DNA from: Acidobacteriota bacterium
Lineage (GTDB): Bacteria > Acidobacteriota > Vicinamibacteria > Vicinamibacterales > UBA2999
Length of the DNA: 64,000 nt
NCBI GenBank assembly: GCA_963169195.1
Contig: CAUJDN010000061.1
Span: 19,833 to 83,832, forward strand
Direction of reading: 5' to 3'
Below are positions 17,226 to 46,542 of this stretch, in pieces; the stretch's first letter is position 1; every line of letters begins with the position of its first letter. The translations under genes were made by a program, and so were the position numbers. Under the pieces are notes generated by a model, which worked only from the letters and a program-made list of their open reading frames with translations, searched no databases and was not told where the DNA came from.

Positions 17226-17228
17226 GCG

Positions 17229-17510
17229 TTAGCCCTTCGGCAGGATGCGTTCGACCTCGGCGTGCGGGCGGGGGATGACGTGCACCGAGATGAGCTCGCC
17301 CACGCGGCGCGCGGCCGCGGCGCCGGCGTCGGTGGCGGCCTTCACGGCGCCGACGTCGCCGCGCACCAGCACGGTCACGTAGCCGGCCCCGATGTATTCG
17401 GTGCCGATCAGCAGGACATTGGCGGCCTTCACCATGGCATCGGCCGCCTCGACCGAGCCGATGAACCCGCGTGTTTCCACCATGCCGAGCGCGTCGCGAG
17501 GGATGTCCAT
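17229..17510 (-). CDS. Bacterial microcompartment shell protein, BMC-H (PduA/EutM/CcmK fold, single BMC domain)
   Basis: 93 aa from Met32 of ORF 17229..17603: [63 protein letters not shown]..., a canonical Pfam00936-type pattern. Confidence 0.88.
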
Positions 17511-17545: not shown

Positions 17546-18433
17546 ATGCAACGAAGAGTGCCGCCCGTCCTGCGCGCGTGCGTGGCCCTCGCGCTCGCCA
17601 CACTCTGCGCCGCCTGCGGGGGCGGCGCGGACACCGCGCCCGCCGTGGGTCGCCTCGCCGTGTCGCTGTCGCGCGCGCGCGTGGCGCTCGGCAGCCCCGT
17701 CGATGTCAGTTACACGTTCACCCTCGCACCCGATGCACCCGCGCTCGGCACGCGGAAGGTGTTCGTCCACTTCCTCGACGCCAACGACGAGCTGATGTGG
17801 GTGGACGACCACGAGCCGCCGACGCCGACGGCCGAATGGAAGCCGGGCCAGACCATCGAGTACACGCGGACCATGTTCGTGGGGCGCCATCCCTACGTCG
17901 GCGCGGCGAGCGTGGTGGCCGGCCTCTACTCGCCCGAGTCCGGCGACCGCCTGATGCTCTCCAACGAGGATCGCGGCGACCGCTCGTACGCGGTGGCAGC
18001 CTTCGAGCTGCTCCCGCAGACCGAGAGCGTGTTCGTCGTCTTCAAGGACGGCTGGCACCCGGCGGAAATGGTGGGAGAGGGCGCGTCGCGCGTCGAGTGG
18101 CAGTGGACGAAGAAGGAGGCCACCGTGGCGTTCCGGAACCCGGCGCGCGACGTCGTGCTCTACCTTCAGGCCGACAACCCCAGCGGCAGCGCCAACGCCG
18201 CGCAGCAGCTGGAAGTCCGCCTGGGTGACCAGGTGCTCGGCACCGTGCCGCTCCGCCGCGATGGTCCCGTGGTGCAGAAGATCCCCATCACGGCCGCCCA
18301 GATGGGATCGGCGGACATGGTGGAACTGCGCTTCATCGCCGATAAGACCATTGTCCCGGCGCTCGAGCCCGGGGGGGCGGCGGGCGACTCCCGCGAGCTG
18401 GGCGCCCGCGTGTTTCACGCAGCCGTGCAGTAG
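17546..18433 (+). CDS. Secreted protein or lipoprotein of unknown function
   Basis: ATG at 17546. Signal peptide [26 protein letters not shown]. Coding-like composition, but no family assignment that I can support. Confidence 0.6.
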
Positions 18434-18481
18434 GGGAGCCAGAGTTGCACGGCAGACGGTAGAGCAGGCAGCGGGAGGCCG

Positions 18482-19207
18482 ATGCGGGTGACCATGGGCG
18501 CGGTTGGGACACGGGGGACGGGGCGCGTGTGCCCGCCGCTCGTCCGACTCGCGTTCTGCTTCGGACCTGTTGCCCTCTGCCCGCTCGCCATTCCAACGGT
18601 GGCGTCTGCCGACATCGTCGTGTTCACGACCGGGCGGACGATGTCGGTGGCGGCGGCCCGCGTAGAGGGCAACCGGCTCACGGTGACCCTGCGCGACGGG
18701 GGCGAGGCGAGTTTCCCGGCTGGCGTGGTCGCCCGCGTGGAGGCTGACGAGGCGCCCTATCCGGCGCCCGCGGACCCACCGCCCCTCGAGGTGGGGGCGG
18801 TCCCCGCACCGGGTGTCGCCGACGCGGCCCTCGCCTCGAGGCCGTTTGCGGACATCATCGCCGCCGCGGCCGCGGCCCATGGCGTGGATGCCCGCGTCGT
18901 GCACGCTGTCGTCGAGGCCGAGTCGAACTACCAGCCGCGCGCCCGATCGCGGAAGGGCGCCAAGGGGCTCATGCAGCTGATGCCGGCGACGGCACGGCAG
19001 TATGCCGTGCGGGACCCGTACGACCCGCGGACGAACATCGACGCCGGCGTGCGCCACCTGAAGGACCTGCTCGGCCGGTTTGACCTCGGGCTCGCGCTGG
19101 CGGCGTACAACGCGGGGGAAGCGGCGGTTCGCCGCCACGGGGGCGTCCCGCCCTTCGCCGAGACGCGGAGCTACGTCGCCCGTATCCTCCAGCGGGTGGG
19201 TCGATAG
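18482..19207 (+). CDS. Soluble lytic transglycosylase (SLT domain) protein
   Basis: SD GGGAGG upstream. Catalytic region ..VVEAESNYQPRARSRKGAKGLMQLMP.. and ..AAYNAGEAAV... Directly precedes the secretion/pilus cluster. Confidence 0.8.
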   Translation: MRVTMGAVGTRGTGRVCPPLVRLAFCFGPVALCPLAIPTVASADIVVFTTGRTMSVAAARVEGNRLTVTLRDGGEASFPAGVVARVEADEAPYPAPADPPPLEVGAVPAPGVADAALASRPFADIIAAAAAAHGVDARVVHAVVEAESNYQPRARSRKGAKGLMQLMPATARQYAVRDPYDPRTNIDAGVRHLKDLLGRFDLGLALAAYNAGEAAVRRHGGVPPFAETRSYVARILQRVGR

Positions 19208-19313
19208 GGGCTCACGCTCGACTGTCCGCGCCCCGTCTCGGTCTAACCTGGTGGGCCCGGGCGGACGATTTCGCCCATTTTCGTGTAACATCTTGTAGGA
19301 CAACCTTTTAGGG

Positions 19314-20525
19314 ATGGAGTTCCGCTGCCGCCTCGGCACCCCGTCGGGCGAGATCATCGAGGGCGTCTACGTCGCCCAGAGCGAGGCCGCGCTCCGCCGC
19401 GAGCTGGAGGAGAAGGGGCTCCACGTCCTGTCGCTCCGGGAGCGAGGGCAGCTCATCGGCCTGTCCTTCGGCGGGCGCCGCCACAAGATTGCGAGGCACG
19501 AGTTCCTGGTGTTCAACCAGGAGCTGGCAACCCTGCTGAAGGCCGGGATGCCGCTGGTGCAATCGCTCGACATCCTGCGGATGAGGCTGTCGAACCCCGT
19601 GTTCAAGGCCGTCCTGGACGACGTGCACGAGAAGGTGCGGGGGGGGACGGCGCTCTCGGACGCGTTCATGGCGCACGGGGAGCACTTCCCGAGCGTGTAC
19701 ACCGCGTCGCTCATGGCGGGGGAGCGGTCGGGTAATCTCGACGCGGTCCTGCGGCGCTACGTGGCCTACACGAAGGTCATCGACACCGTGCGGACGAAGT
19801 CGATCTCGGCGCTCGTGTACCCGGCCATCCTCATCGCGCTTGCGCTCGTGCTCGTGGGGATCATCGTGATCAAGGTGGTGCCCACGTTCTCGGAGTTCTA
19901 CACGAGTTTCGGCGCGCAGCTGCCGGTGTCGACGCGCGTCATCGTGGCCGTGTCGGACGTCGTCCGCGCGCAGATGTGGCCGCTGCTGGGGGCGGTGGTG
20001 ATCGGTGTCGTCGTGTTCCGGGCCTGGCTGAAGGGCCCGGGACAGCAGGCGCGTTTCGACCGGATCGTGCTGCGGCTGCCGGGCATCGGGCCGAGCATGC
20101 ACAAGTTCGCCACGTCGCAGCTGGCGCGGACGCTGGCCACGCTGCTCGGTGGCGGCATCCCGCTGGTGAACGCGCTCGACATCGCCTCGAAGTCCACGGG
20201 CAACCGCCACATGGGCCGTGAACTCGAGCTGGTGGCGCAGAAGGTCCGCGAAGGGCAGGGGTTCGCGACCACCCTGCTCGATCGGCAGACCGTGCCGGAC
20301 GTGGCGATCAAGATGATCGAGGTCGGGGAGAGCACCGGGGCGCTCCAGGAGATGCTCAACAGCCTGGCGGACTTCTACGACGAGGAGATTGAAACCGAGG
20401 TGAGCCGGTTCGTCACGCTCATCGAGCCGGCGCTGCTCGTCATCATGGGCGTGGTGATCGCCGCCATCGTGCTGGCGCTCTACATGCCGCTCTTCCAGTT
20501 GACCTCCGTCCTGGGCAACCGCTGA
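19314..20525 (+). CDS. gspF: Type II secretion / type IV pilus platform protein (GspF/PilC family)
   Basis: 403 aa with two T2SSF repeats (..FNQELATLLKAGMPLVQSL.., ..QLARTLATLLGGGIPLVNAL..) and three TM segments. Confidence 0.9.
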   Translation: MEFRCRLGTPSGEIIEGVYVAQSEAALRRELEEKGLHVLSLRERGQLIGLSFGGRRHKIARHEFLVFNQELATLLKAGMPLVQSLDILRMRLSNPVFKAVLDDVHEKVRGGTALSDAFMAHGEHFPSVYTASLMAGERSGNLDAVLRRYVAYTKVIDTVRTKSISALVYPAILIALALVLVGIIVIKVVPTFSEFYTSFGAQLPVSTRVIVAVSDVVRAQMWPLLGAVVIGVVVFRAWLKGPGQQARFDRIVLRLPGIGPSMHKFATSQLARTLATLLGGGIPLVNALDIASKSTGNRHMGRELELVAQKVREGQGFATTLLDRQTVPDVAIKMIEVGESTGALQEMLNSLADFYDEEIETEVSRFVTLIEPALLVIMGVVIAAIVLALYMPLFQLTSVLGNR

Positions 20526-22195
20526 TGGACGCCACCCAGCATCCCGATACCGACGCGCTCGATCCCGAGTCGCTCATCGAGGAACCCGCCGAGTCGGCGG
20601 CTGCCCTCGCGGCGCGGTCGGCAGAGGCCGAGCAGGCGCGGCGGCTGGCCGAGCGCTACCGGCTCGAGTTCCTGGACATGGCGGACTTCCGGATCGACCA
20701 GGAGCTCTTCCGGTCGATCCCGGCCGATCTCATGCTGCGCTACGGGTTCGTGCCCAGCCGCCGCGAGGGGAAGGCCATCGTCATCGTGGTCTCGGACCCG
20801 ACGGACCTCCCGATGATCGACGAGCTGAGCGTGCTGCTCGGGACGCCGATCAGGGTCATGGTGGGCGCGCGCTCGGCGATCGAGTCGATCCTGAAGAAGA
20901 GCGAGAGCTCGCAGCGGCTGCTGGACGAGGCCACCGAGGAGTTCCAGATCCAGGTCCTGCGCGAGGACGAGGGCGGGGAGGACAACCTCAGCCTCGAGCG
21001 CCTGACGAGCGACGACAGCCCCATCATCAAGCTGGTGCACCGGACCATCTTCACGGCCATCCAGCGGCGCGCGAGCGACATCCACATCGAGACGCAGGAC
21101 GATGCGGTGCACGTGAAGTACCGGGTGGACGGCGTGCTGCAGCCGGCGATGCGGCCCATCGCGAAGCGCTTCCACAGCTCGATCATCTCGCGCATCAAGG
21201 TGATGGCCGAGCTGGACATCGCCGAGAAGCGCGTGCCGCAGGACGGCCGCTTCAAGCTGAAGGTGCCGGGCAAGACCATCGATTTCCGCGTGTCGGTGAT
21301 GCCGAGCGCGCACGGCGAGGACGCGGTCATCCGCATCCTCGACAAGCAGTCGATCAGCGAGCAGTTCACCGAGCTGCGTCTCGACATCCTCGGGTTCCCC
21401 GACCTGGAACTGCGGCGCTTCCGCAAGTACATCCGGGAGCCGTACGGCATGGTGCTGGTCACCGGACCGACGGGGTCCGGCAAGACGACGACGCTCTATG
21501 CCGCCCTGGCCGAGATCAAGTCGATCGAGGACAAGATCATCACGATCGAGGACCCGGTCGAGTACCAGCTGCGCGGCATCACGCAGATCCCGATCAACGA
21601 GAAGAAGGGACTGACCTTCGCGCGCGGGCTGCGGTCCATCCTGCGCCACGACCCCGACAAGATCATGGTGGGCGAGATCCGCGACCCCGAGACGGCGCAA
21701 ATCGCCATCCAGTCGGCGCTGACGGGCCACCTGGTCTTCACCACGGTCCACGCCAACAACGTGTTCGACGTGCTGGGGCGGTTCCTGAACATGGGCGTGG
21801 AGCCGTACCAGTTCATCTCGGCGCTCAACTGCGTGATGGCCCAGCGGCTCGTCCGCCGTATCTGCGAGTCGTGCAGGCGCGAGGCGCGGTACGAGACGGA
21901 CCTGCTGATCGAGTCGGGACTGAACCCGGCGCTGGCCACCTCGCACGTGTTCCACGAGGGCGCCGGGTGCATCGAGTGCAGCGGCACCGGCTTCAAGGGC
22001 CGCATGGCCATCTGCGAGCTGCTGGACCTCACCGACAACATCCGCGAGATCATCCTGGACCGGCGGCCCATCTCCGAGGTCAAGCGCGCGGCCAAGGAAC
22101 AGGGGATGCGCTTCCTGCGCGAGTCGGCGGTCGAGCGCGTGATGCACGGCCTGACCACGCTGCGCGAGATCAACAAGGTGACCTTCGTCGAATGA
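20525..22195 (+). CDS. gspE: Type II secretion / type IV pilus assembly ATPase (GspE/PilB family)
   Basis: The start overlaps the gspF stop by 1 nt. Walker A ..VTGPTGSGKTTTLY.., Asp/His boxes, and tetracysteine motif CESC..CIEC. Confidence 0.93.
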   Translation: MDATQHPDTDALDPESLIEEPAESAAALAARSAEAEQARRLAERYRLEFLDMADFRIDQELFRSIPADLMLRYGFVPSRREGKAIVIVVSDPTDLPMIDELSVLLGTPIRVMVGARSAIESILKKSESSQRLLDEATEEFQIQVLREDEGGEDNLSLERLTSDDSPIIKLVHRTIFTAIQRRASDIHIETQDDAVHVKYRVDGVLQPAMRPIAKRFHSSIISRIKVMAELDIAEKRVPQDGRFKLKVPGKTIDFRVSVMPSAHGEDAVIRILDKQSISEQFTELRLDILGFPDLELRRFRKYIREPYGMVLVTGPTGSGKTTTLYAALAEIKSIEDKIITIEDPVEYQLRGITQIPINEKKGLTFARGLRSILRHDPDKIMVGEIRDPETAQIAIQSALTGHLVFTTVHANNVFDVLGRFLNMGVEPYQFISALNCVMAQRLVRRICESCRREARYETDLLIESGLNPALATSHVFHEGAGCIECSGTGFKGRMAICELLDLTDNIREIILDRRPISEVKRAAKEQGMRFLRESAVERVMHGLTTLREINKVTFVE

Positions 22196-23082
22196 GCCTC
22201 CTCGACTGGCTGGCAGCGGCCCCGCCCGACGTGGCGGTGGCCATCGATCGGGGACACGTCTCGGCCGCGCGCCTCGACTGGCGCGGCGGCCGGCCGGTCG
22301 TGGCCGCGGAAGCATGCGAGGCCCTTCCCGCGGGGACCGTGACGCCGGCGCTGGCCGTCGCCAACATGCCCGACACGGGCGCCGTCGGTGTCGTGGTCTC
22401 GCGGGTGCTGGGCGAGCTCGGCGGACGGGCCTCGCGCGTCGCGCTCGTCGTGCCCGACCCGGTGGTGAAGGTGTCCCTGATCCGCCTGGAGAAGGTGCCC
22501 CAGCGCGCCGCCGACCTGCGCGAGATCGTCCGCTGGCAGGTGAAGAAGAGCTCGCCCTTCCCGGTGGAGCAGGCGGTGCTCAGCATCAGCCCCGGCGAGG
22601 ATCTGCCCGACGGCGGCCGCGAGTTCGTCGTGGCGCTCGCCCGTGAGGATGTCATCCGGCAGTACGAGCAGGCGTGCGCGATGGCGCGGGCCCATGCCGG
22701 CGTCGTCGACCTGGCGACCTTCGGTGTCGTCAGCAGCATCCTGACGGGCGGCGTGCCCTCCGGGGACTGGCTGGTGGTCCACGTGGCCGAGTCGTTCACG
22801 ACCGTGGCCGTCATGCGCGGCGAGCGGCTGATCTTCTTCCGGACCCGATCCGACGAATCGGAGGGGACGCTGGGCGACCTCATCCACCAGACGGCGATGT
22901 ACTACGAGGACCGGCTCCAGGGCACGGGACTCTCGCACGTGTGGCTGGCGGGCCCCGGCGCGATGACCACCGAGGCGCAGCGGGACGTGGAAGCGCGGCT
23001 GAACACGCGTGTGGAGGCCATTCCGGCCGGCCCGCTGGCCCCGCTGATCGGCGTGCTCGCGCGCGACGGGAAGGCGGCCTGA
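22192..23082 (+). CDS. pilM: PilM-like actin-fold assembly protein
   Basis: The ATG at 22192 overlaps the gspE stop (ATGA). ..ALVVPDPVVKVSLIRLEKVPQRAADLREIVRWQVKKSSPFPVEQ.. is a typical PilM pattern. The upstream part of ORF 21871.. is out of frame within gspE. Confidence 0.8.
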   Translation: MSLLDWLAAAPPDVAVAIDRGHVSAARLDWRGGRPVVAAEACEALPAGTVTPALAVANMPDTGAVGVVVSRVLGELGGRASRVALVVPDPVVKVSLIRLEKVPQRAADLREIVRWQVKKSSPFPVEQAVLSISPGEDLPDGGREFVVALAREDVIRQYEQACAMARAHAGVVDLATFGVVSSILTGGVPSGDWLVVHVAESFTTVAVMRGERLIFFRTRSDESEGTLGDLIHQTAMYYEDRLQGTGLSHVWLAGPGAMTTEAQRDVEARLNTRVEAIPAGPLAPLIGVLARDGKAA

Positions 23083-23083
23083 C

Positions 23084-23713
23084 GTGGTGCGCGCCAACCT
23101 CTCGACCCGACCGTTCTACAACGAGCGCCTGGTGCGGGCGGTGCTCGGCCTGATCACGCTGGTGGCGATCGGCCTGACCGGCTACAACGTCGCCAGGATT
23201 CTCGCGCTCCGGTCGCAGGGCGCCGAGGCCCGCGGGCAGGCCGAGGGGGCCACGCGCGAGGCGGGCCAGCTGCGCGCCGAGGCGCTCCGCATCCGGCAGA
23301 CCATCAACCGCGAGCAGCTCGCGGCCGTGCAGGCCGCGGCGCACGAGGCGAACCAGCTGATCGACCGGCGCGCGTTCTCGTGGACCGATCTGTTCAACCA
23401 GTTCGAGCGCACGCTGCCCGCCGGCGCCCGGATCGCCGCGGTGACGCCGCAGTTCGACACCGGGGGGCGCATGATGGTGGCCGTGTCCGTGGTGTCCCGC
23501 CGGGTCGAGGACCTCGACGCCTTCATCGAGGCCCTGGAGAAGACCGGCCGGTTCAGTCAGGTGCTGTCGCGGCAGGAGGAGGCGCAGGAGGATGGGACCC
23601 TGATGTCCATCATTCAGGGCTACTACCGGCCCTCGGCGACCCCGCCGGCCGCCGCGGAGGCTGCCGCTGCACTGCCCGCGCCGACGGACGTGCGCGCGGA
23701 GGGGCCGCGATGA
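23084..23713 (+). CDS. pilN: PilN-like bitopic assembly protein
   Basis: N-terminal ..NLSTRPFYNER.., one TM helix, a coiled coil, then a ferredoxin-like C-terminal part. Its position after pilM supports the call. Confidence 0.7.
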   Translation: MVRANLSTRPFYNERLVRAVLGLITLVAIGLTGYNVARILALRSQGAEARGQAEGATREAGQLRAEALRIRQTINREQLAAVQAAAHEANQLIDRRAFSWTDLFNQFERTLPAGARIAAVTPQFDTGGRMMVAVSVVSRRVEDLDAFIEALEKTGRFSQVLSRQEEAQEDGTLMSIIQGYYRPSATPPAAAEAAAALPAPTDVRAEGPR

Positions 23714-24312
23714 AGGCGCAGTTCGGCATGGCCGAAGCGGTGCCGATCTCGCGGGTGATCCGCGACTACCGCCCGTGGATTGTGACGCTGGCCGTGGCGC
23801 TCGTCGCGAACCTCGGCGTGCTGCTGCTCGTGGTGCTGCCCCTGTCGGCGTCCACCGATGCCGGCGCCCGCCGGGCGGCGGCCGCCGTCGAGGACCGGGC
23901 CGCGGCAGAGGCCGAGCTGCGGGCGGCCGAACAGACGCGCGATGGCCAGTCCCAGGCCGCGCGCGACCTGGAGCGCTTCTACGGCGAGATCCTGCCCACG
24001 GATGTCGCCACCGCGCGACGCCTGACGCATCTCAGGCTGAGCCAGATGGCGCGCGAGCACGACGTGACGTTCCAGCGCAGCTCCGCCGCGCCCGAGGAGC
24101 TTCGCGACTCATCGCTCGAGCGGCTCCGCGTGAGCTACGCGCTCAGCGGCGACTACGAGGACATCCGGGCCTTCATCTACGAAATCGAGACGGCGCCAGA
24201 CTTCCTGGTCATCGACAACGTCTTTCTGGCGGAGGGGACCGGCGACCAGGCGCCGCTGACCTTGACACTCGATCTCTCCACGTATTACCGGGTGACCCGC
24301 GATGCGCCCTGA
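23710..24312 (+). CDS. pilO: PilO-like bitopic assembly protein
   Basis: The ATG at 23710 overlaps the pilN stop. One TM, a coiled coil, and a C-terminal ..YEDIRAFIYEIETAPDFLVIDNV.. motif typical of PilO/GspM. Confidence 0.6.
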   Translation: MKAQFGMAEAVPISRVIRDYRPWIVTLAVALVANLGVLLLVVLPLSASTDAGARRAAAAVEDRAAAEAELRAAEQTRDGQSQAARDLERFYGEILPTDVATARRLTHLRLSQMAREHDVTFQRSSAAPEELRDSSLERLRVSYALSGDYEDIRAFIYEIETAPDFLVIDNVFLAEGTGDQAPLTLTLDLSTYYRVTRDAP

Positions 24313-24865
24313 CCGCCGCACGCTGCTGACCGCGGCGGCCCTGGTCGTGGTGCTGGGCGCGGTGGCGTGGACATTCTTCGGGCCGTCCACCCCGGCGCCG
24401 GCCTCCGTCGCCCAGGCCGACGGGCGGAGGAACACGCTGGCGGGAGCGCCGCTGCCGTCGGCGGAGGCCGTGCGGCTCGCGGACCTGGACGCGCCGCGGG
24501 CGAAGCCGTCCGAAGCCACGCGCGACCCCTTCCGGTTCCAGGCGCGCGCGTCCCAGGCCGGCGTGTCCTCGCCCGGCGCGGCTCCGGTGTTCGCGCCGGT
24601 GCAGACGGCACCCGCAGGGCCGACCGAGCCCGCCGGCCCGCCCCCGCCGCCGCCCATCACGCTGAAGTTCATCGGCGTGGTGGAAACGGCGGGCGGCCTG
24701 AAGCTGGCGGTGCTCAGCCAGGGGGAGGGCCGTGCACCGATGCACGGCAAGGAAGGGGATATCATCGACGGCCGGTACCGGATCCTGCGGATTGGGACCG
24801 AGTCGATCGAAATGGCGCACCTCGACGGGCGTGGCCGGCAGACCATCCGGCTCACCGGGCAGTAG
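24302..24865 (+). CDS. PilP / GspC-HR-like periplasmic protein
   Basis: N-terminal TM, Pro-rich linker, then a C-terminal beta domain ..LKFIGVVETAGGLKLAVLSQ..GKEGDIIDGRYRILRIGTESIEM... Positioned before the secretin. Confidence 0.55.
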   Translation: MRPDRRTLLTAAALVVVLGAVAWTFFGPSTPAPASVAQADGRRNTLAGAPLPSAEAVRLADLDAPRAKPSEATRDPFRFQARASQAGVSSPGAAPVFAPVQTAPAGPTEPAGPPPPPPITLKFIGVVETAGGLKLAVLSQGEGRAPMHGKEGDIIDGRYRILRIGTESIEMAHLDGRGRQTIRLTGQ

Positions 24866-24935: not shown

Positions 24936-27503
24936 ATGACGTTGACACTGGCAGGGCGAACATTGGTCGTGGTGGCCCTCGCGGCCCTCGTCGCCGGCTG
25001 CGCGACCGGGCGGGCCTACACGCGCGGGCAGGAGGCCGCGAAGGCCGGCGACTGGGACTCCGCCGTGGGCTTCTACCGCCAGGCGCTGCAGGACGATCCC
25101 GACCGGCCGGACTACAAGATTGCGCTCGAGCGCGCCATGCTGGCGGCGGCGCAGATGTACGTCGCCCGCGCCCGCGCGTTCGAGGCCGCGAACCAGCCCG
25201 AAGAGGCCGCGCGGGCCTATCGCAAGGCGCTCGAGTTCGAGCCGTCGAACCGGCCCGTGGCGCAGCGGGCCGCCGAGATCGAGCGGATGCTCCGCGATCG
25301 CCTCGAGGCGGCCGCGCCGCGGCCCGAGATCGAGAAGCTCCGGGAGCAGGCGCGGCGCCAGTCGGCCGAGCCCATCCTCAACCCGTCGAGCCGCGATCCG
25401 CTGAGCATCCGGTTCACCAACGCCAGCATCCGCGACGTCCTCAACTTCATCGGCAACGCGACGGGCATCAACGTCACCTACGATCGCGACTTCCAGGATC
25501 GCTCGATCACGCTGACCCTCGAGGGCGTCACGCTGGAGCAGGCGCTCCGGCAGATCATGATTGCCAACCAGCTCTTCTACAAGGTGCTCGACGAGCGCAC
25601 CATCATCGTGGCGGCCGACACGACCCAGAAGCGGACGCAGTACGAGGAGCAGGTCATCCGGACGTTCTTCATCTCGCACGCCGACGCGACGGAGATCTCG
25701 CAGCTGCTCACCGGCATCGTGCGGGTGGCGGGCGTGGCCATCCAGCCGACGATTGTCGCGAACAAGACGACCAACACCATCACCGTGCGCGCCACCGCCG
25801 CAGTGGTCGAGATCGTCGAGCGGATGATCGCCGCCAACGACAAGCCTCGGGCCGAGGTCGTGGTCGACGTGCAGATCCTCGAGGTGAACCGGGAGCGTGC
25901 GAAGCAGTACGGCCTGAACCTCGCGGACTACCAGGTCAGCGGCATCTTCTCGCCCGAGACGACGCCGGGCGACGCGCCGTTCAACCTGAACACCATCTCC
26001 ACCGGCATCAGCACGGCGGACTTCTACCTCTCCGTGCCCGCGGCGGTGATGAAGTTCCTCGAGAGCGATTCGTCGACCAAGGCGCTCGCCAAGCCGCAGC
26101 TCCGGGGCGTGGAAGGGCAGAAGCTGACGCTGAACCTCGGTGAGGACGTGCCCGTGCCGAGCACGACGTTCACGCCCATCGCCGGGGGCGGCGTGGCCAC
26201 GCAGCCGCTGACCTCGTTCGCCTACCGCACGGTCGGTGTCATCGTCGAGATGACACCGCGCGTCACCTACGAAGGCGAAATCATCCTCGAGCTGTCGGTC
26301 GAGAGCAGCGCCCGGGGGCAGGACACGAACATCGCCGGGCAGAACCTGCCGTCGTTCCTGTCGCGAAAGGTCGTCACCAAGCTGCGCCTGCGCGACGGCG
26401 AGTCGAACCTGCTGGCCGGCCTGCTCCGCGAGGACGAGCGCCGCTCGCTGCGCGGCTTCCCGGGCATCCTCCGGCTGCCCCTCGTCCGGCAGTTGTTCTC
26501 GGCCAACGACGAGTCGATTCGGCAGTCGGACATCGTGATGCTGCTGACGCCGCGGATCATCCGCACGCACGAGCTGACGGCGACGGACCTGAGCCCCATC
26601 TACGTGGGCACGCAGAGCAACATGGCGCTGGGCGGCCCGCCGCCGCTCATCAGCGTCGGCGGCACCGAGCCGCCGCCGGCCGCCGGGCCTGCGGCGGGCG
26701 CGGCCCCCGGGGCGCCGGCGCCGGGCACGCCGGCGACGCCAACGACCGCCCCGGCGCCGCGGGATCTGCCGCCGACGACCGGCACACCGGTCACCACGCC
26801 CGGCGCCACCGGCGTCACGCCGATGCTGCCGCCAGGCTCATCGCCCATCCCGGGAACCATCGGGGTGCCGGCCCAGCCGGCGCAGCCGCCGCCAAGCGGC
26901 GTGACGGTCTTCCAGCCGGTCGAGCCGGCCCCGGCCCAACCCGCCGCCACTCCGCCGCCGACCGGCTTGTTCGGCACGCCCGTCACGCCCACGGAACCGC
27001 CCGCGCCAGGCGCTGCGGTCGCACCGGGCGTGTCGGTCCCCGCTCCGCCGCCGCCCCCTGGCGCCCCGCCCGCGGCCCCGGCGGCCGCCGACGCCGCGCG
27101 GATCTCGCTCAGCCCGCCAAGCGAGATGCGAGTGAGCAGCGGACCGTACACCGTGCCGGTGTCCATCAGCGGCGCCTCGCGCCTCACCGCCGTGACGGTG
27201 TCCATCACGTTCAACCCGGCGCTGCTGCGCGTGCGCAGCGTGTCGGAAGGCACGTTCATGCGCCAGGGTGGGGCCACGCCGACCTTCACGCAGCAGGTGG
27301 ATTCTGCGGCGGGCCGGATCGACATCGCCATCGTGCGGCCCGGGGACCAGGTGGGCGCATCGACCACGGGCCTGCTCGCGGCCATTCTCCTCGAGCCGGT
27401 CGCCGCGGGCACGGGCACGCTCTCCATCAGCGGCTCGGGGACCGTCGCGGGTGGCGGGGCGGCCACGCTCCGGTTCGCTCCCGCGGGAGTGGTGGTGCGA
27501 TAG
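24936..27503 (+). CDS. Secretin (GspD/PilQ family) lipoprotein with N-terminal TPR region and C-terminal cohesin-like domain
   Basis: ATG at 24936. Lipobox LVAGC, then TPR-like helices, N-domains (..IRFTNASIRDVLNFIG..), and a secretin core (..KPQLRGVEGQKLTLNLG.. ..IVMLLTPRII..). A ~150-aa P/A/T/G linker follows. The terminal ~130 aa resemble a cohesin fold. Confidence 0.88.
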   Translation: MTLTLAGRTLVVVALAALVAGCATGRAYTRGQEAAKAGDWDSAVGFYRQALQDDPDRPDYKIALERAMLAAAQMYVARARAFEAANQPEEAARAYRKALEFEPSNRPVAQRAAEIERMLRDRLEAAAPRPEIEKLREQARRQSAEPILNPSSRDPLSIRFTNASIRDVLNFIGNATGINVTYDRDFQDRSITLTLEGVTLEQALRQIMIANQLFYKVLDERTIIVAADTTQKRTQYEEQVIRTFFISHADATEISQLLTGIVRVAGVAIQPTIVANKTTNTITVRATAAVVEIVERMIAANDKPRAEVVVDVQILEVNRERAKQYGLNLADYQVSGIFSPETTPGDAPFNLNTISTGISTADFYLSVPAAVMKFLESDSSTKALAKPQLRGVEGQKLTLNLGEDVPVPSTTFTPIAGGGVATQPLTSFAYRTVGVIVEMTPRVTYEGEIILELSVESSARGQDTNIAGQNLPSFLSRKVVTKLRLRDGESNLLAGLLREDERRSLRGFPGILRLPLVRQLFSANDESIRQSDIVMLLTPRIIRTHELTATDLSPIYVGTQSNMALGGPPPLISVGGTEPPPAAGPAAGAAPGAPAPGTPATPTTAPAPRDLPPTTGTPVTTPGATGVTPMLPPGSSPIPGTIGVPAQPAQPPPSGVTVFQPVEPAPAQPAATPPPTGLFGTPVTPTEPPAPGAAVAPGVSVPAPPPPPGAPPAAPAAADAARISLSPPSEMRVSSGPYTVPVSISGASRLTAVTVSITFNPALLRVRSVSEGTFMRQGGATPTFTQQVDSAAGRIDIAIVRPGDQVGASTTGLLAAILLEPVAAGTGTLSISGSGTVAGGGAATLRFAPAGVVVR

Positions 27504-27505
27504 CC

Positions 27506-27982
27506 ATGCGGCGCCTCCGCGCGGCCCACGGGTACACCTTCGTCGAGCTGCTGGTGGTCACGACCATCGTGCTGATCCTCGCCTCGGCCGTACAGCCGCT
27601 GGCGCGCGTGACCATCCAGCGGCAGAAGGAAGTGGAGCTGCGCCGCGTGCTGCGCGAGATGCGCGATGCCATCGACAAGTTCAAGGACGCCGCCGACCAG
27701 GGGATGATCCCGACCACCGAGCTCAAGGCCAACAGCGAAGGCTACCCGCCCGATCTCGAGGTGCTCGTCGATGGGGTCTCGGTCGCCAACGACGCCTCCG
27801 GACGCAAGCTCAAGTTCCTGCGCCGCATCCCCAAGGATCCGATGACGGGCGAGGCCGAATGGGGCCTCCGATCCTACCAGGACAAGCCGGACACCACGAG
27901 CTGGGGCGGCCAGAACGTCTTCGACGTGCGCTCGCTCAGCGAGGGTACGGCGCTCGACGGGTCGAAGTACAAGGACTGGTAG
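27506..27982 (+). CDS. gspG: GspG-like major pseudopilin (prepilin-type N-terminus)
   Basis: Leader MRRLRAAHG followed by YTFVELLVVTTIVLILA (Glu at +5). GspG-like body ..YPPDLEVLV.. and ..FLRRIPKDPMTG... Confidence 0.85.
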   Translation: MRRLRAAHGYTFVELLVVTTIVLILASAVQPLARVTIQRQKEVELRRVLREMRDAIDKFKDAADQGMIPTTELKANSEGYPPDLEVLVDGVSVANDASGRKLKFLRRIPKDPMTGEAEWGLRSYQDKPDTTSWGGQNVFDVRSLSEGTALDGSKYKDW

Positions 27983-27999
27983 CAGGGGGAGAGTGCGGA

Positions 28000-28485
28000 G
28001 TGCTGGTGACGCAGTGCAGCGCCTGGCTCGCCGACGCGCGGGCGTTCGCCGCCAGATGGCGGGACGGCGGGCGTGTGCCGCCCGCGCGTCCCGGTACCGG
28101 GCGCCATGGATTCACCATGATCGAGCTGCTCGTCGTCATCTCGATCATCGTCATCCTGGCCAGCCTGGGGATGGTGCAGTACCGCAACAGCGTCATCCGC
28201 GCGCGCGAGGCGGTGCTGAAGGAGGACCTCTTCCGCATGCGCGACGCGATCGACCAGTACTACGCCGACAAGAGCAAGTACCCCTCGTCGCTGGACGATC
28301 TCGTGACGGACGGCTACCTCCGCGAGATCCCCGTGGACCCCATCACCCAGTCGAAGGACACCTGGCAGGTGGTCAACCAGGAGCCGAATGTCAACGATGC
28401 CACGGCGCAGCCGGGCGTCTACGACGTGAAGAGCGGATCGGATCAGACCGCGCTCGACGGCACCCGGTACGCGGACTGGGAATAG
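28000..28485 (+). CDS. gspG: GspG-like pseudopilin, second copy
   Basis: Prepilin motif G|FTMIELLVVISIIVILA, then ..AVLKEDLFRMRDAIDQYYADKSKYPSSLDDLV..YLREIPVDPIT... The start is uncertain: GTG 28000 (SD AGGGGGAG upstream) or GTG 28075 (12-aa leader). Confidence 0.8.
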   Translation: MLVTQCSAWLADARAFAARWRDGGRVPPARPGTGRHGFTMIELLVVISIIVILASLGMVQYRNSVIRAREAVLKEDLFRMRDAIDQYYADKSKYPSSLDDLVTDGYLREIPVDPITQSKDTWQVVNQEPNVNDATAQPGVYDVKSGSDQTALDGTRYADWE

Positions 28486-28581: not shown

Positions 28582-29820
28582 CTACGGGTTCACCCGGACC
28601 GTCAACTGGGCGAGCCCGGACGTCCCCGTCGTCGTCCGCACGGTGACGGTCGCGATGTAGGTGCCAGGCGCCGTGTAGCGATGGTTCGTCGTCGAGCCCG
28701 TGGTGACGGCGCCCCGGCCGTCGCCGAAGCTCCAGTCGTAGGACACGATTCCCGCCGACGACCCCAGGCCGCCGGCCGACGCCGAGAAGGCGACGATGCC
28801 CTGCTGCAGCGGGCTGCCGATTGACACCGGGTTCGGTGTCGCGGTCATCGTCAGCGGGACGGATGACTGGTCGTTCACGTTCACGACAATCGAGGACGTG
28901 CCCGTGATGCCCTGCGTGTCCGTGACCGCCGCCCGCACGGTGTAGACGCCCGCACGCGGGAAGGCATGCGCGACCGGCGTCGCACCCGAGATGGCGCCCA
29001 GGCGCGTCACCGCCGTGCCGTCGCCCCAGTCGATGACCACGTCCCGGATGCCATTCGTGCCCGTCCCGGCGACGGGCGTGATCGTGAAGGTCGCGCCGAC
29101 CCCGGCCTCGAGGCCCGTCGTCGGTGCGGCGATGGTCACCGCCGGCGATGAGGCGGTCACGTCGACGGTCGCGCTCTGGCCGCCGGCCGTGGCCGTCACG
29201 GTCGCGGACCGCGGCGCCGTGAGCGTCGTGCGAGCCTCGCCACTGGCGGTGGTGATGGCCTGGCCGGCCGAGAGTTGTCCTGCGGTCGTCGTGAACGTGA
29301 CGGGCACGCCCAGCAGTGGGTTACCCGCCGCGTCCACGACGGTGGCGATGACGTCCGTGCTGCCGCCGGTGGCGGGGATGGTCTGCGGATCCGCGCGCAG
29401 GATGATGCGCGCGGCCGCGGCGCCGCCGACGAGGATCTCCACTTCTGTGGCGCGGGTCGCGCCGGAGAACGCGCCGATCTTCGCCGTGCCGGACTGGGCG
29501 CTCGCGATGAAGCGCACCGTGGCCTTGCCGCCCTCCGTGCGAGCCTCCGTCGGGTCGATGGTGCCGAACGAGGAGGTGAACGTGACGACGGTGCCATTCT
29601 GCACCGGCGTGCCCGCCGATTCGGTCACCGAGGCGGACACCTCTGCCGTGCCGTTGACCGGCACGACCGTCGTGCTGACCGTCAGGGTGATGGTGGACTC
29701 GGTTGGCGCCAGCAGGGGCACCTTGTCGCAGGCCGACAGAGTGGCCGCCGCGAACAGGAGCGCGAAAAGCGACGAGCGGGAACGTGACACGGGCAAGGCC
29801 AATAAGGATAATAGGCGCAT
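28582..29820 (-). CDS. Lipoprotein with tandem bacterial Ig-like (Big) and PKD-like domains
   Basis: Signal peptide/lipobox ..AATLSAC. Repeated ~85-aa Thr/Val/Ala-rich beta modules (..GTAEVSASVTESAGTPVQNGTVVTFTSS..). Two PKD-type motifs (VVIDWGDGT.., VSYDWSFGDGR..). Confidence 0.75.
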   Translation of the reverse strand: MRLLSLLALPVSRSRSSLFALLFAAATLSACDKVPLLAPTESTITLTVSTTVVPVNGTAEVSASVTESAGTPVQNGTVVTFTSSFGTIDPTEARTEGGKATVRFIASAQSGTAKIGAFSGATRATEVEILVGGAAAARIILRADPQTIPATGGSTDVIATVVDAAGNPLLGVPVTFTTTAGQLSAGQAITTASGEARTTLTAPRSATVTATAGGQSATVDVTASSPAVTIAAPTTGLEAGVGATFTITPVAGTGTNGIRDVVIDWGDGTAVTRLGAISGATPVAHAFPRAGVYTVRAAVTDTQGITGTSSIVVNVNDQSSVPLTMTATPNPVSIGSPLQQGIVAFSASAGGLGSSAGIVSYDWSFGDGRGAVTTGSTTNHRYTAPGTYIATVTVRTTTGTSGLAQLTVRVNP

Positions 29821-30745
29821 GGGGTTAGCGGGTCAAGGCTGTCGCGCTGACGCGCGCGGCTACGCCATGGCCGCGTTGCTCGTCGGAATGAGCGTGATGG
29901 CCGTGATGATGGCGGCTGCGCTGCCCGTGTGGACGCATGTCGCCCAGCGCGAGAAGGAAGAGGAGTTGATCTGGCGCGGCGAGCAGTACCGGCGCGCCAT
30001 CATGCTGTTCCAGCGCCGCTACGCGAACACCTTCCCGCCGACCCTGGACGTCCTCGTCGAGCAGAAGTTCCTGCGGAAGAAATACAAGGACCCGATCGCC
30101 AACGACGACTTCCAGATCATTCCGGTCGGCGGCGCGATGCCGGGCGGCCGGCCCGGCATGCCTGCGACCGGCGGGCCAGCCAACGTCCCCGGCGGCCAGG
30201 GAGGCGCGGGTGGGTTCGGGGCGGCGCAGCCGGGCACGCCGGCAGGGGCGGCGACCTCGTCTTCGTTCGGCCAGGCCACGCAGCCCGCCATGGGCATCCA
30301 GGGCGTCACTTCGAAGAGCAAGGACCAGTCCATCAAGCTCTATAACGGGATGGACCGCTACAACCAGTGGGCGTTCGTGTATCTGGCCGCGTCCACGCAG
30401 GCGGGCGCGGGCGGAGCGGGGTTTGTGCAGCCCGGCATGCGTGGCCGCCCGCCAGGCGCCGGCGGGCCGCCGGGTGGGGGCTTCGGCCAGCCTGGCGGAG
30501 GCTTCGGGCCGCCGGGAGGGGGTTTCGGGCAACCGGGAGGCGGGTTCGGTCAGCCAGGCGGGGGCTTCGGTCAGCCTGGAGGAGGGTTTGGCCAGCCGGG
30601 CGTTCCCGCCCAGCCGAAGTACCCGCCGGTGCCCGGGGGGGCCGGCTCGCCCGGTGGCTTCGGGGCGCCTGGCGGTGGCGTCCCTCCGGCGGGGCCTGGC
30701 GGTTCGGTGTTCACGCCGGGTACCCCCGGCAGCGGTGGACAATAA
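29819..30745 (+). CDS. Divergent GspG-like protein lacking Glu+5, with Gly-rich C-terminal tail containing (GGGFGQP)x6
   Basis: N-terminus ..ARG|YAMAALLVGMSVMAVMM... Its body parallels the two pseudopilins (REKEEEL.., ..FPPTLDVLVEQKFLRKKYKDPI..). An alternative start is ATG 29867. Confidence 0.6.
   Translation: MGLAGQGCRADARGYAMAALLVGMSVMAVMMAAALPVWTHVAQREKEEELIWRGEQYRRAIMLFQRRYANTFPPTLDVLVEQKFLRKKYKDPIANDDFQIIPVGGAMPGGRPGMPATGGPANVPGGQGGAGGFGAAQPGTPAGAATSSSFGQATQPAMGIQGVTSKSKDQSIKLYNGMDRYNQWAFVYLAASTQAGAGGAGFVQPGMRGRPPGAGGPPGGGFGQPGGGFGPPGGGFGQPGGGFGQPGGGFGQPGGGFGQPGVPAQPKYPPVPGGAGSPGGFGAPGGGVPPAGPGGSVFTPGTPGSGGQ
30473..30598 (+). repeat. Six in-frame 21-bp tandem repeats encoding GGGFG(Q/P)P
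   Basis: The units differ mainly at synonymous positions (GGTGGGGGCTTCGGCCAGCCT / GGCGGAGGCTTCGGGCCGCCG / ...). Confidence 0.9.
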
Positions 30746-44851: not shown

Positions 44852-44892
44852 GCCTTCCCGGCTTATTATCGCCTGAACCTCCCACCCGACCG

Positions 44893-46542
44893 ATGACTCG
44901 CCTCGCCATCCTCTGGCACATGCACCAGCCCTTCTACCAGGACCTCGCGACGGGCGAGCATGCGCTGCCGTGGGCGCGCCTGCACGCGCTGAAGGACTAC
45001 CGGGGCATGGTGGACGTCCTCGAGGCCTTCCCGGCCGTGCGGGCCACGTTCAACCTGGTGCCGTCCCTCGTGCGCCAGGTGGACGACTACGCCGCGGGTG
45101 CGGGGACCGATCGGCTGCTGCGGGTGGGCTTGACGCCCGCCGACATGTTGACCGCGGACGATCGGGCGTTCCTGGTGGCGAACGGTTTCCATGCGTCCTT
45201 CGAACGCCTGATTGCGCCGCACCCGCGCTACGCCGAGCTCCACGCCGCGCGCGAGCAGGCCGCGGGCTGGACGGCCACCGACCTGCGAGACCTGCAGGTC
45301 TGGCACAAGCTCGTCTGGATGGACCCGGACCAGCGGAGGACGGATCCGCGGCTCGTCGGCCTGGCGGGACGTGGCCGCGGGTTCTCGGAAGACGACAAGG
45401 CCGCGCTCCACGCCGCCGAGATGGAGTGGCTGCGGTCCACGGTCGACGCCTATCGCCGGGCGCTGGAGCGAAGGCAGGTGGAGATCTCGACCTCGCCGTT
45501 CTATCACCCGATCCTGCCGCTGCTGTGCGACACGGACGCGCACCTGGCCGCGCATCCTGATGCCGCCCGCCCCGCGCGGCCGTTTCGCCATCCCATCGAC
45601 GCGCGCGAGCAGCTGGCGCGCGCCGTTCGCTTCCACCGCGCCCGGTTTGGCGCGCCGCCCCTGGGCATGTGGCCGCCGGAGGGCGCGGTCTCGAACCTCG
45701 TCGTGCCCATCGTCGCGGCCGAGGGCCTGGGCTGGATGGCAACAGACGAGGGCGTGCTGGCGCGGTCGATGGGCGAGGACCTGCCTCGGGATGGCGACGG
45801 GCTGCCGCTCCGTGCGGACGTGCTGTACCGGCCCTACGAGGTCCAGGCAGGCGGCGCCCGCGTGCGCGTGCTGTTCCGCGACCATGCGCTCTCGGACCGC
45901 GTCGGCTTCCTCTATCAGTCGTGGCAGGCGTCCCATGCCGTGGACGACTTTCTCTGGCGTGTGCGCGAGGGTGCGCGCCGCTTCTCGGAGCGCGAGCCAG
46001 GCCAGGACCCGGTCATCACCGTCGTTCTCGATGGGGAGAACGCCTGGGAACATTATGAAGGCGGCGGCCGGCTGTTCCTGCGGGAGCTCTACGGGCGACT
46101 CCAGGCCGCCACCGACATCCGGACCGTGACGATGGCCGAGGCCGCGAGTGACGGGGCGCGGCCCCTGCCGTCGTTGTTCCAGGGGTCCTGGATTCATGCC
46201 GACTTCTACATCTGGGCCGGCCATCGCGACGACCAGCGGGCCTGGTCACAGTTGAGCGGGGCACGGGCCGCCTACGATGAGCGGGCCCCATTTGTCCCGG
46301 CTGCGGCCCGGGACCGGGCCTACGAGGAACTCCTGATTGCCGAGGGGTCGGACTGGTTCTGGTGGTACGGCGACGACCACTCGTCGCCGCAGGACCGGGA
46401 GTTCGACGAGCAGTTCCGCCGCCACCTGAGGCATGCCTACGAGGCGCTCGGGCTGGTGGCGCCCGCCGAGCTGCTCGAGACCAACATCACCACTGGTGCC
46501 GCGCCGCCCCTGGCAGGTGGCGTGATGGAACCGGCGGAGTGA
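44893..46542 (+). CDS. Glycoside hydrolase family 57 protein (alpha-glucan-active)
   Basis: MTRLAILWHMHQPFYQD.. is the GH57 N-terminal signature. Also ..ISTSPFYHPILPLL.., ..MWPPEGAVS.. and ..DGENAWEHY... Confidence 0.85.
   Translation: MTRLAILWHMHQPFYQDLATGEHALPWARLHALKDYRGMVDVLEAFPAVRATFNLVPSLVRQVDDYAAGAGTDRLLRVGLTPADMLTADDRAFLVANGFHASFERLIAPHPRYAELHAAREQAAGWTATDLRDLQVWHKLVWMDPDQRRTDPRLVGLAGRGRGFSEDDKAALHAAEMEWLRSTVDAYRRALERRQVEISTSPFYHPILPLLCDTDAHLAAHPDAARPARPFRHPIDAREQLARAVRFHRARFGAPPLGMWPPEGAVSNLVVPIVAAEGLGWMATDEGVLARSMGEDLPRDGDGLPLRADVLYRPYEVQAGGARVRVLFRDHALSDRVGFLYQSWQASHAVDDFLWRVREGARRFSEREPGQDPVITVVLDGENAWEHYEGGGRLFLRELYGRLQAATDIRTVTMAEAASDGARPLPSLFQGSWIHADFYIWAGHRDDQRAWSQLSGARAAYDERAPFVPAAARDRAYEELLIAEGSDWFWWYGDDHSSPQDREFDEQFRRHLRHAYEALGLVAPAELLETNITTGAAPPLAGGVMEPAE

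Follow-up and report, generated by a model that had tools for sequence, protein, structure and literature searches.

A lipoprotein-type secretin of Vicinamibacterales with a TPR module and a tethered C-terminal cohesin

Why would a secretin carry a cohesin, and what could such a module hold at an outer-membrane channel? The question is raised by a gene at positions 24936-27503 (+) of a 64-kb window, the whole stretch of Vicinamibacterales (Acidobacteriota) DNA that we analysed. One continuous ORF encodes a protein of 855 aa with the domain order signal peptide/lipobox (Cys22), ~3 TPRs, N0, one N1, secretin barrel, ~150-aa Pro/Ala/Thr linker and C-terminal cohesin. A literature search found no paper combining a secretin, a cohesin domain and type II secretion, and nothing relevant came from searches on cohesins in Acidobacteria, TPR-fused secretins or Vicinamibacter.

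Architecture and conservation of the secretin

The GC3 of the secretin ORF is 0.92 and uniform along its length, as in real genes of this 70% GC genome. A public Vicinamibacterales MAG protein (P0001) is 100% identical over the full length and has the same ATG start, and the identical 855-aa protein is present on 9 independent contigs from several sources. A full-length search gave thousands of secretin-family matches, and the best 120 of these, the close homologues, all had the full architecture. We also found it in representatives less than 50% identical to one another, and together with its locus in 80 species genomes. The fusion, whose conservation in orthologues the initial annotation had proposed to check, is therefore kept: neither a frameshift nor a chimeric assembly accounts for this gene, and the multi-domain secretin is real and conserved. 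Judging from the recurrence in homologues, distant representatives and species genomes, the architecture as a whole is under selection. Identity to the reference was 68% for the cohesin versus 33% for the linker, the cohesin being about as strongly conserved as the core machine parts. As far as sampled, the family is found in Vicinamibacterales only, a soil lineage that is dominant but little studied. It is abundant, given its best 120 matches, its 80 species genomes and the 2,361 cluster representatives that are matched by a profile of the tail. In one related locus (L073), we noted a local frameshift inside the cohesin.

The N-terminus reads MTLTLAGRTLVVVALAALVAGC followed by A. Read directly from the sequence, this is a lipoprotein signal peptide (24936..25001, +) with the lipobox V-A-G-C (LVAGC), Cys22 and Ala at +2. 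The lipobox occurs in 117 of the 120 homologues and C22 is invariant in a 52-sequence alignment (A3), which bears out the lipoprotein signal proposed initially; Cys22 is thus predicted to be lipidated. A lipoprotein signal on the secretin itself is the hallmark of liposecretins of the HxcQ type, HxcQ being a lipidated self-piloting secretin of Pseudomonas aeruginosa (Viarre et al. 2009, as cited in PMC12475490). As in HxcQ, the signal is followed by a spacer before N0, and self-targeting without a separate pilotin would be expected. However, HxcQ comes without a TPR module, a long tether or a C-terminal cohesin. The gene unk295 (17546-18433), which lies upstream of the operon and is present across related loci, encodes a conserved putative lipoprotein that could be a separate pilotin or helper, and this would speak against self-piloting.

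Behind the lipobox lies a TPR module (25002..25364, +), with ~3 canonical TPRs in the helices of residues 23-126 and a connecting helix at 131-143. Residues 28-115 matched Pfam TPR_2 (E 2e-11), TPR_14 (8e-10) and TPR_1 (3e-9), and AF2 modelled helices 23-126 in a TPR fold with pLDDT 91-96. This part comprises ~100-120 aa with five or six helices and no long TPR array; the TPR domain of PilF has about 6 repeats. Its best PDB sequence matches were designed consensus TPR proteins, with no pilotins among the matches. Against the family-specific models it scored 16 bits for PilW (TIGR02521, cutoff 154) and 11 bits for Tgl (NF033762, cutoff 225). By these scores, the TPR is generic and not a PilF/PilW/Tgl homologue. 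Thus, of the pilotin-like N-terminus described in the initial annotation, the TPR module after the lipobox was found, but not the resemblance to PilF/PilW/Tgl. Since the TPR lacks specific pilotin similarity, 'pilotin in cis' is an architectural analogy only. Like PilF/PilW/Tgl of type IVa pili and TadD of the Tad system, the protein has an outer membrane lipoprotein signal at the sequence level and would place a lipid-anchored TPR and a secretin together at the inner leaflet of the outer membrane. Those pilotins are separate polypeptides that secretin assembly requires; here the TPR forms part of the secretin chain, in cis at its N-terminus, and has ~3 repeats versus 5 in TadD. The groove of TadD, which binds an unstructured secretin C-terminal peptide, is nevertheless a plausible model for a TPR-tether contact in the protein analysed here (PMC10499894).

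The TPR module is followed by an N0-like (STN-type) periplasmic domain at residues 156-236 (25401..25643, +), with a Pfam STN match under the cutoff (E 1e-4) and an alpha/beta AF2 model at pLDDT ~85. Next comes a single N1/N3-type domain at residues 239-301 (25650..25838, +), where Secretin_N (PF03958) matched at 242-306 with 36.4 bits (cutoff 28.2, pLDDT ~88). The secretin beta-barrel core occupies residues 307-546 (25854..26573, +), with Secretin (PF00263) at 375-543 (E 5e-31, 107.9 bits versus a cutoff of 27.5). Among PDB sequences, the core matched PilQ (6ve2, 65.5 bits) and GspD (5wq7, 59.6 bits), and Foldseek with the full-length model ranked secretins first (top match 6w6m, E 8.5e-18). 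Two Pfam families over their cutoffs, together with PDB secretins found by sequence and by fold, place the protein in the secretin superfamily. Its N0, N1 and barrel are those of GspD from type II secretion systems (T2SS) and of PilQ from type IVa and competence pili, and its core is homologous to 6ve2, 5wq7 and 6w6m. However, with 126.1 bits for the GspD equivalog (TIGR02517, cutoff 351.35) and 120.8 bits for PilQ (TIGR02515, cutoff 284.35), it falls far under both cutoffs. It further differs from both in having two N-domains only, no helical S-domain and an added TPR and cohesin. The Pfam scan of the secretin detected no AMIN domain either; such domains are common in PilQ.

The operon and its neighbours

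Upstream of the secretin, the plus strand (18482..24865) encodes an SLT lytic transglycosylase, GspF, a GspE/PilB ATPase (MshEN), PilM, a PilN-like, a GspM/PilO-like and a 187-aa PilP/GspC-like protein, as assigned by Pfam and NCBIfam. All related loci that have enough sequence show synteny over this block. Directly 3' of the secretin are two GspG-like pseudopilin genes of 158 and 161 aa (27506..28485, +), recognized by an N_methyl motif and weak matches to TIGR01710 (GspG). Both were present in 80 of 80 loci (68-97% and 55-98% identity), and their PDB matches run through the N-terminal helix only. The operon common to all members thus holds SLT, GspF, GspE, PilM/N/O, the PilP-like gene, the secretin and the pseudopilins, and in this it resembles GspD and PilQ loci with their GspE/F, PilMNO(P) and pseudopilins. 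The ATPase scored about equally as PilB and as GspE. The platform protein scored best as GspF, yet under the GspF cutoff. We take the machine to be a lineage-specific type II secretion/type IV pilus-like system of Vicinamibacterales.

A lipoprotein with Big_1, Invasin_D3 and PKD domains and the lipobox LSAC (PKD_4 E 2e-19, Big_1 E 3e-14) is encoded on the minus strand at 28582..29820 and recurs in 71 of the 80 loci; this conserved neighbour is a candidate cargo. We also considered it as the docking partner of the cohesin and rejected it: when it was inspected for a hyper-conserved docking module, none stood out, the first Big_1 being somewhat better conserved. A third pilin-like gene follows at 29816..30745 (+), recognized by its translation and GC3; the product lacks Glu5 and has a hydrophobic helix at its N-terminus and a tail of GGGFGQP repeats. 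Public annotation places the minus-strand gene 'unk305' here, which we consider a wrong-strand call; GC3 is 0.85 on the plus strand versus 0.72 on the minus strand, and the pilin-like plus-strand ORF is real.

The cohesin tail, its tether and the search for a partner

The barrel is followed by a disordered, uncharged Pro/Ala/Thr/Gly tether at residues 559-717 (26610..27086, +), with pLDDT <50 throughout in the AF2 model. The long linker noted initially was thus confirmed: residues 573-720 (148 aa) consist of 32% Pro, 20% Ala, 13% Thr and 12% Gly. Across the family the linker is 66-188 aa long, with ~4% charged residues on average and the 33% identity given above. Amid this variable sequence stands a short linear motif, PPGSSPIPG (residues 632-640, 26829..26855, +), and 107 of the 132 full-length family members contain the pattern P[PA]G[ST][STP]P[IVL]P.

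The last ~130 aa had been read as a cohesin, and this reading held for a region of ~135 aa, residues 721-855 plus the stop codon (27096..27503, +); the start first given, 27095, is out of frame. The tail alone scored 26.7 bits for Pfam Cohesin (PF00963, cutoff 24.1, E 7e-6). While a narrow family profile (A1) found nothing relevant among PDB sequences, a diversified tail profile (A2) found cohesins only (3l8q, 8e-10; 2xdh, 3e-6). The tail profile also gave a transitive link to strong cohesins, as it retrieved proteins with repeats that match Pfam Cohesin at E-values from 1e-46 to 1e-64. AF2 modelled the tail as all-beta (pLDDT 96.0, pTM 0.89), and in this predicted model we recognized the nine-stranded beta-sandwich (jelly-roll) of cohesins. 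With it, the top 50 Foldseek matches were all cohesins, the best at TM 0.79-0.83 and the first being 2xdh (E 4e-10, TM 0.79-0.80). Three independent routes, Pfam score, profile links and predicted fold, make a solid case that the tail is a genuine cohesin.

Single cohesins on proteins other than those of cellulose degradation are known from Archaeoglobus fulgidus (2xdh) and Clostridium perfringens (2jh2, 2vo8), and in this the secretin resembles them. However, the proteins that bear those modules are extracellular or at the surface, and their dockerins are known or encoded alongside, whereas here the cohesin sits on an outer membrane channel, probably in the periplasm, with no dockerin found in the loci. 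By sequence, the tail falls into the same cohesin subfamily as the multi-cohesin, scaffoldin-like proteins P0123, P0134, P0198 and P0266 (whole-protein E down to 1e-69). These differ in that their cohesins stand 3-6 in tandem, and they have T9SS sorting domains or lack a secretin altogether; they come from other lineages and are surface scaffolds, not channel subunits.

The initial annotation had proposed that a dockerin-type partner docks at the channel and had suggested a genome scan for it. We scanned for dockerins with a Ca-loop motif regex in six frames of the 64-kb window and in 82 loci, in all ~1.4 Mb from the surroundings of the orthologous operon in ~80 genomes, where the dockerin of locus L084 served as a positive control and was detected. 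No dockerin was found in the window (one junk regex match) and none in the 82 loci, in which nine regex matches all lay in wrong-frame, Arg-rich ORFs. Nor was there a second cohesin in the related loci, each having one. With one cohesin and no dockerin, the DNA of the window and related loci does not have the makeup of a cellulosome-like scaffoldin system. Thus, docking at the outer membrane channel stands as far as the cohesin on the secretin is real; the dockerin partner was not found in the window or the ~1.4 Mb and is hypothetical. The gene of the related P0198 adjoins that of a Dockerin_1 protein, so this cohesin subfamily can have dockerin partners. To our knowledge, dockerin binding is the only biochemical activity of cohesin modules, and all characterised cohesin-dockerin pairs act extracellularly; we know of no precedent for a periplasmic pair.

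Possible roles of the tethered cohesin

The reading that we prefer, and to which we give about an even chance, is an outer membrane secretin of a Vicinamibacterales T2SS/type IV pilus-like machine that has trans functions built in, targets itself and captures a partner with periplasmic cohesins. Functions supplied in trans elsewhere would then reside in one secretin polypeptide. Once Cys22 is lipidated, the Lol pathway would sort the secretin to the inner leaflet of the outer membrane, and the secretin would target itself as the liposecretin HxcQ does. The TPR module would lie beside the barrel in a pilotin-like assembly role, perhaps clamping an extended peptide in the C-terminal extension of a neighbouring subunit, as TadD clamps the RcpA C-terminus. 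In the RcpA-TadD complex the secretin C-terminus is periplasmic, and the TPR lipoprotein pilotin TadD binds the unstructured RcpA C-terminus on that side (PMC10499894). Since the C-terminus is periplasmic in such solved secretin-pilotin complexes (PMC10499894), docking most likely takes place under the outer membrane and not at the cell surface. As the C-terminus of a secretin leaves the barrel on the periplasmic side, each channel would have 12-15 cohesins suspended in the periplasm, with tethers of sufficient length to reach across its full depth. They may capture a protein with a dockerin or dockerin-like module, most plausibly folded cargo or an accessory enzyme, which would be concentrated at the entrance of the machine.

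Together, the lipid-anchored TPR and the tethered cohesin suggest that a partner protein is brought to the channel in a manner not described so far. The cohesin would stand in a cellular compartment and a machine where none has been described. With its lipid anchor and pilotin-like TPR on the channel subunit itself, the protein would extend the self-piloting liposecretins beyond the single known example, HxcQ. A secretin with a highly conserved docking module on a periplasm-spanning leash is also a concrete, experimentally tractable hypothesis for the recruitment of cargo or accessory proteins. In its most specific form, a modular cargo receptor whose 12-15 cohesins catch periplasmic proteins that bear a cognate dockerin or an unrecognised dockerin-like tag and hand them to the channel, we regard it as unlikely. 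The recognition of folded cargo by the T2SS is, as far as we know, a long-standing open problem with no portable signal known. If it acts as a cargo receptor, a T2SS-type system would for the first time have a secretion signal that is encoded in the sequence and transferable, and a cohesin-dockerin pair would for the first time be at work inside the periplasm.

Rather unlikely, too, but the best of the other explanations, is a structural or assembly role without any dockerin. The cohesin would then bind part of its own machine, be it a protein from the operon, an adjacent secretin subunit, the TPR of that subunit or another complex, and recruit no cargo. It would work like a larger S-domain on a tether and keep the secretin multimer stable, spaced or anchored. 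Such a role would fit the lack of dockerins near the operon in ~80 genomes, a tail conserved about as the core machine parts are, and its strict co-occurrence with one fixed operon. The conserved PPGSSPIPG has the look of a ligand peptide that the TPR, for one, could bind, and TPR pilotins do bind secretin C-terminal peptides (PMC10499894). However, a flexible leash of 66-188 aa is poorly suited to a rigid brace, no candidate internal ligand was identified in our analysis, and dockerin binding is the one activity that we know of for cohesins.

Capture on the periplasmic side, as we prefer it, also has to be weighed against display at the cell surface. There the tether, for example threaded through the channel, would bring the cohesin out to anchor extracellular dockerin-tagged enzymes or adhesins by the pore, like a minimal cellulosome-like anchor. 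The cohesins characterised so far are all extracellular, the closest multi-copy relatives (P0123, P0134, P0218) are surface proteins with T9SS sorting domains, and the ~150-aa tether, ~45 nm when fully extended (148 residues x ~0.3 nm), would in principle be long enough. We nevertheless hold this to be distinctly improbable: solved secretins have their C-terminus on the outer face of the barrel within the periplasm, at the site of pilotin binding, a translocation route is not known, a threaded tether would occlude the channel, and ~1.4 Mb of orthologous loci held no dockerin genes nearby.

Finally, an artefact in which a frameshift, read-through or assembly chimera merged unrelated secretin and cohesin genes has next to no probability: apart from the frameshift in L073 nothing speaks for it, the conservation data (120 homologues, 80 species genomes) refute it, and against it stand a continuous ORF of uniform GC3, an identical protein on 9 independent contigs from several sources, and a tail that folds in AF2 with pLDDT 96.

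Reading frame and conservation of the secretin gene

The secretin gene (window 24936-27503, + strand) is one unbroken open reading frame of 855 codons. With a GC3 of 0.92, its stop-to-stop frame is in line with real genes of this genome of about 70% GC. The public protein P0001, from an Acidobacteria/Vicinamibacterales MAG, matches it with 100% identity over 100% of the length and shares its ATG start, and the exact sequence was found on nine contigs from several sources. P0001 is annotated as 'hypothetical protein' only. The sequence is public and the domain combination already appears in automated Pfam annotation; a literature search returned no paper linking a cohesin to a secretin, and related topics gave nothing relevant.

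The best 120 homologues (811-908 aa) have an identical domain order. Apart from P0032, a homologue with a divergent C-terminus, all share the C-terminus ...LQFxPAGxxVR, including those without a precomputed Cohesin match. Lipobox, TPR, STN, Secretin_N, Secretin, Pro-rich linker and Cohesin are all kept in six homologues that are mutually less than 50% identical (P0166, P0175, P0177, P0192, P0222 and P0237). Using patterns specific to this secretin family, we scanned one genome per GTDB species and found 80 loci, all of them from Acidobacteriota and mostly from Vicinamibacterales MAGs. Judged by sequence, both the family with this architecture and its operon are conserved; an artefact origin is refuted by these conservation data, and we give it practically no chance.

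Eleven loci (L004, L011, L012, L027, L031, L035, L036, L040, L041, L056 and L069) are titled Bifidobacteriaceae, Acidimicrobiia or Cyanobacteriota despite an Acidobacteriota-type locus, which likely reflects submitter mislabelling or bin contamination. In L073 (9434-10465), the orthologous cohesin tail occupies two different frames owing to a frameshift or sequencing error of that long-read MAG; the window is unaffected.

Domains of the secretin

A full-length AlphaFold2 model based on 52 homologues (alignment A3) comprised a signal helix (residues 1-22), five TPR-type helices (23-126, pLDDT 91-96; Pfam TPR repeats at 28-115, TPR_2 E 2e-11 with the N-terminal fragment as query), a connecting helix (131-143), an N0-like alpha/beta domain (156-236, pLDDT ~85; sub-threshold Pfam STN/N0 match at 179-226), a single N1-type domain (239-301, pLDDT ~88; Secretin_N at 242-306), the secretin core (~307-546, pLDDT mostly 75-89; Secretin at 375-543, E 5e-31), a disordered stretch of 159 residues (559-717, pLDDT < 50) and the cohesin (721-855, pLDDT 91-97; Cohesin at 739-839). 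The model retrieved secretins first (6w6m, E 8.5e-18) and cohesins second. Among PDB sequences, the core was about equally close to PilQ (6ve2, 65.5 bits) and GspD (5wq7, 59.6 bits), and the protein scored far below both equivalog cutoffs. These matches place it in the secretin superfamily and the cohesin family and outside the GspD and PilQ equivalogs.

That the tail is a cohesin, as the initial annotation had suggested, was confirmed by three independent routes: transitive homology, PDB profile matches and predicted fold. The start then given, 27095, was out of frame by one base; from the in-frame start at 27096, the isolated tail scored 26.7 bits against a Pfam Cohesin cutoff of 24.1. Run against 1.84 billion cluster representatives, a profile built from nine tails of the family (A1) matched 2,361 proteins at E <= 1e-3; some of these repeat the domain 3-6 times in tandem and reach Pfam Cohesin E values of 1e-46 to 1e-64. 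This narrow profile found nothing in PDB sequences. For a diversified profile of 36 sequences (A2), the significant matches there were cohesins only (3l8q, 7.9e-10; 2xdh, a non-cellulosomal cohesin of Archaeoglobus, 3.3e-6; 1g1k, 3.8e-5). AlphaFold2 predicted an all-beta sandwich from A2 (mean pLDDT 96.0, pTM 0.89), and the top 50 Foldseek matches of the tail model in the PDB were all cohesin or cohesin-like (probability 1.00, best TM 0.79-0.83), with 2xdh first (E 3.9e-10).

The putative lipobox at the N-terminus also held up: it reads V-A-G-C, Ala at +2 fits the consensus, 117 of 120 close homologues carry a lipobox, and Cys22 is invariant across A3. The adjoining helices had been likened to a pilotin. 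The TPR itself is real and of the canonical consensus type, its top PDB sequence matches being designed consensus TPR proteins, but no pilotin was in that list, and the PilW and Tgl family models gave 16 bits (cutoff 154) and 11 bits (cutoff 225), respectively.

The proposed Pro/Ala tether was recovered as the disordered stretch of the model. The linker proper (residues 573-720) contains 32% Pro, 20% Ala, 13% Thr and 12% Gly, with about 4% charged residues as the family average. Members of the family have linkers of 66 to 188 aa, with just 33% identity to the reference, versus 68-79% in every folded domain. The sole conserved island, PPGSSPIPG (residues 632-640, window 26829-26855, + strand), is near-invariant, occurs in 107 of 132 full-length members and resembles a short linear motif for binding.

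Operon and machine

All loci with sufficient sequence shared one gene order in the operon, as did that of the distant representative P0177. A putative lipoprotein of 295 aa and an SLT lytic transglycosylase are followed by GspF, a GspE/PilB ATPase (20525-22195, +), PilM, a PilN-like protein, a GspM/PilO-like protein, a PilP/GspC-like protein of 187 aa, the secretin and two GspG-like pseudopilins; in most loci, a Big_1/Invasin_D3/PKD lipoprotein and a third pilin-like gene then follow. In NCBIfam, the platform protein was closest to GspF, the ATPase scored nearly equally with PilB (544 bits) and GspE (538 bits), and no machine component reached an equivalog cutoff. By sequence, the machine therefore belongs to the type IV filament superfamily as a divergent member, with no firm assignment to either T2SS or T4P. 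MshEN-type domains bind c-di-GMP. Since the ATPase carries one at its N-terminus (PF05157, E 1.4e-18), the machine may be under c-di-GMP control.

At the operon head (17546-19207, +), the conserved 295-aa putative lipoprotein is without a family match, and the SLT protein has an N-terminal region of about 120 aa with no assigned function. Each is a possible accessory factor, acting as a pilotin-like helper or peptidoglycan remodeller, or else a possible ligand of the cohesin. The third pilin-like gene (29816-30745, +) encodes a hydrophobic N-terminal helix, the non-canonical leader RGYAMAALLV, which lacks Glu5, and about seven GGGFGQP repeats that form the C-terminal tail. An Arg-rich 305-aa ORF in one public annotation (L001), on the opposite strand, appears to have been called on the wrong strand (GC3 0.72 versus 0.85).

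Directly upstream of the operon (15408-17510, -) lie an aldehyde dehydrogenase and a BMC shell-protein gene, both conserved beside it even at the distant locus L083; the shell gene stands alone, and the stretch examined shows no obvious BMC locus. The remainder of the window is housekeeping (SecA, IMPDH, LptF/G, RecN, PtsI), so this is core chromosome. Here, LptF_LptG matches twice in full (E 4e-160) within a single 854-aa ORF (42485-45049, -), apparently an LptF-LptG fusion permease.

Docking partner and proposed mechanism

The dockerin-type partner implied by the initial annotation did not materialize: a six-frame search for the Ca-loop motif, which detected the dockerin of the control locus L084, gave no genuine hit in the window or across roughly 1.4 Mb of related loci, each of which has one cohesin only. 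The six-cohesin protein P0198, a relative of the same cohesin subfamily from another organism, adjoins a Dockerin_1 protein, so the subfamily is not intrinsically dockerin-less. Of 80 related loci, 71 retain the Big/PKD lipoprotein (28582-29820, -; lipobox LSAC), which is encoded between the pilin genes and in some loci lies on the operon strand. Conservation is highest in its first Big_1 domain, and we found no special docking module in the lipoprotein. Some T2SS substrates are lipoproteins encoded beside their machines. By this analogy the conserved, divergently encoded lipoprotein is a candidate cargo; it is possibly cargo or a surface component of the machine.

In solved structures, secretin C-termini lie on the periplasmic outside of the barrel and are bound there by lipoprotein pilotins. 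The last four residues of RcpA sit in the TPR groove of TadD (PMC10499894), and HxcQ, in the account cited in PMC12475490, shows self-piloting by a secretin that bears a lipid anchor of its own. From periplasmic C-termini and HxcQ self-piloting we infer every step of the following mechanism. Cys22 would be lipidated and the protein sorted to the inner leaflet of the outer membrane. Next to the anchor, the TPR would form a cis pilotin-like module that may hold a peptide from a neighbouring subunit's extension, with PPGSSPIPG as candidate ligand. Some 12-15 cohesins per channel would hang in the periplasm, which the fully extended linker (148 residues x ~0.3 nm = ~45 nm) is long enough to span, and would capture a dockerin or dockerin-like module of cargo or an accessory protein. 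By analogy, the secretin may combine the workings of a liposecretin of the HxcQ type, a TPR pilotin (PilF/PilW/Tgl/TadD) and a non-cellulosomal cohesin. The 855-aa protein is no member of the pilotin families.

A purely structural or assembly role, in which the cohesin binds a non-dockerin ligand, would fit the lack of Ca-loop motifs in the loci searched; we consider such a role unlikely. Display of the cohesin on the surface would place it away from the periplasmic side where solved secretin C-termini lie, and seems less probable still. The protein opens a testable way into how a secretin recruits cargo or partners.

In L084 (contig ERZ25039512:contig_58588, 3875-14032), from an unrelated organism, P0198, two single-cohesin proteins and a 1,118-aa Dockerin_1/TSP3 protein are clustered. 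The cluster is apparently a cohesin-dockerin system of the non-cellulosomal kind, a possible model for the specificity of the secretin's cohesin subfamily.
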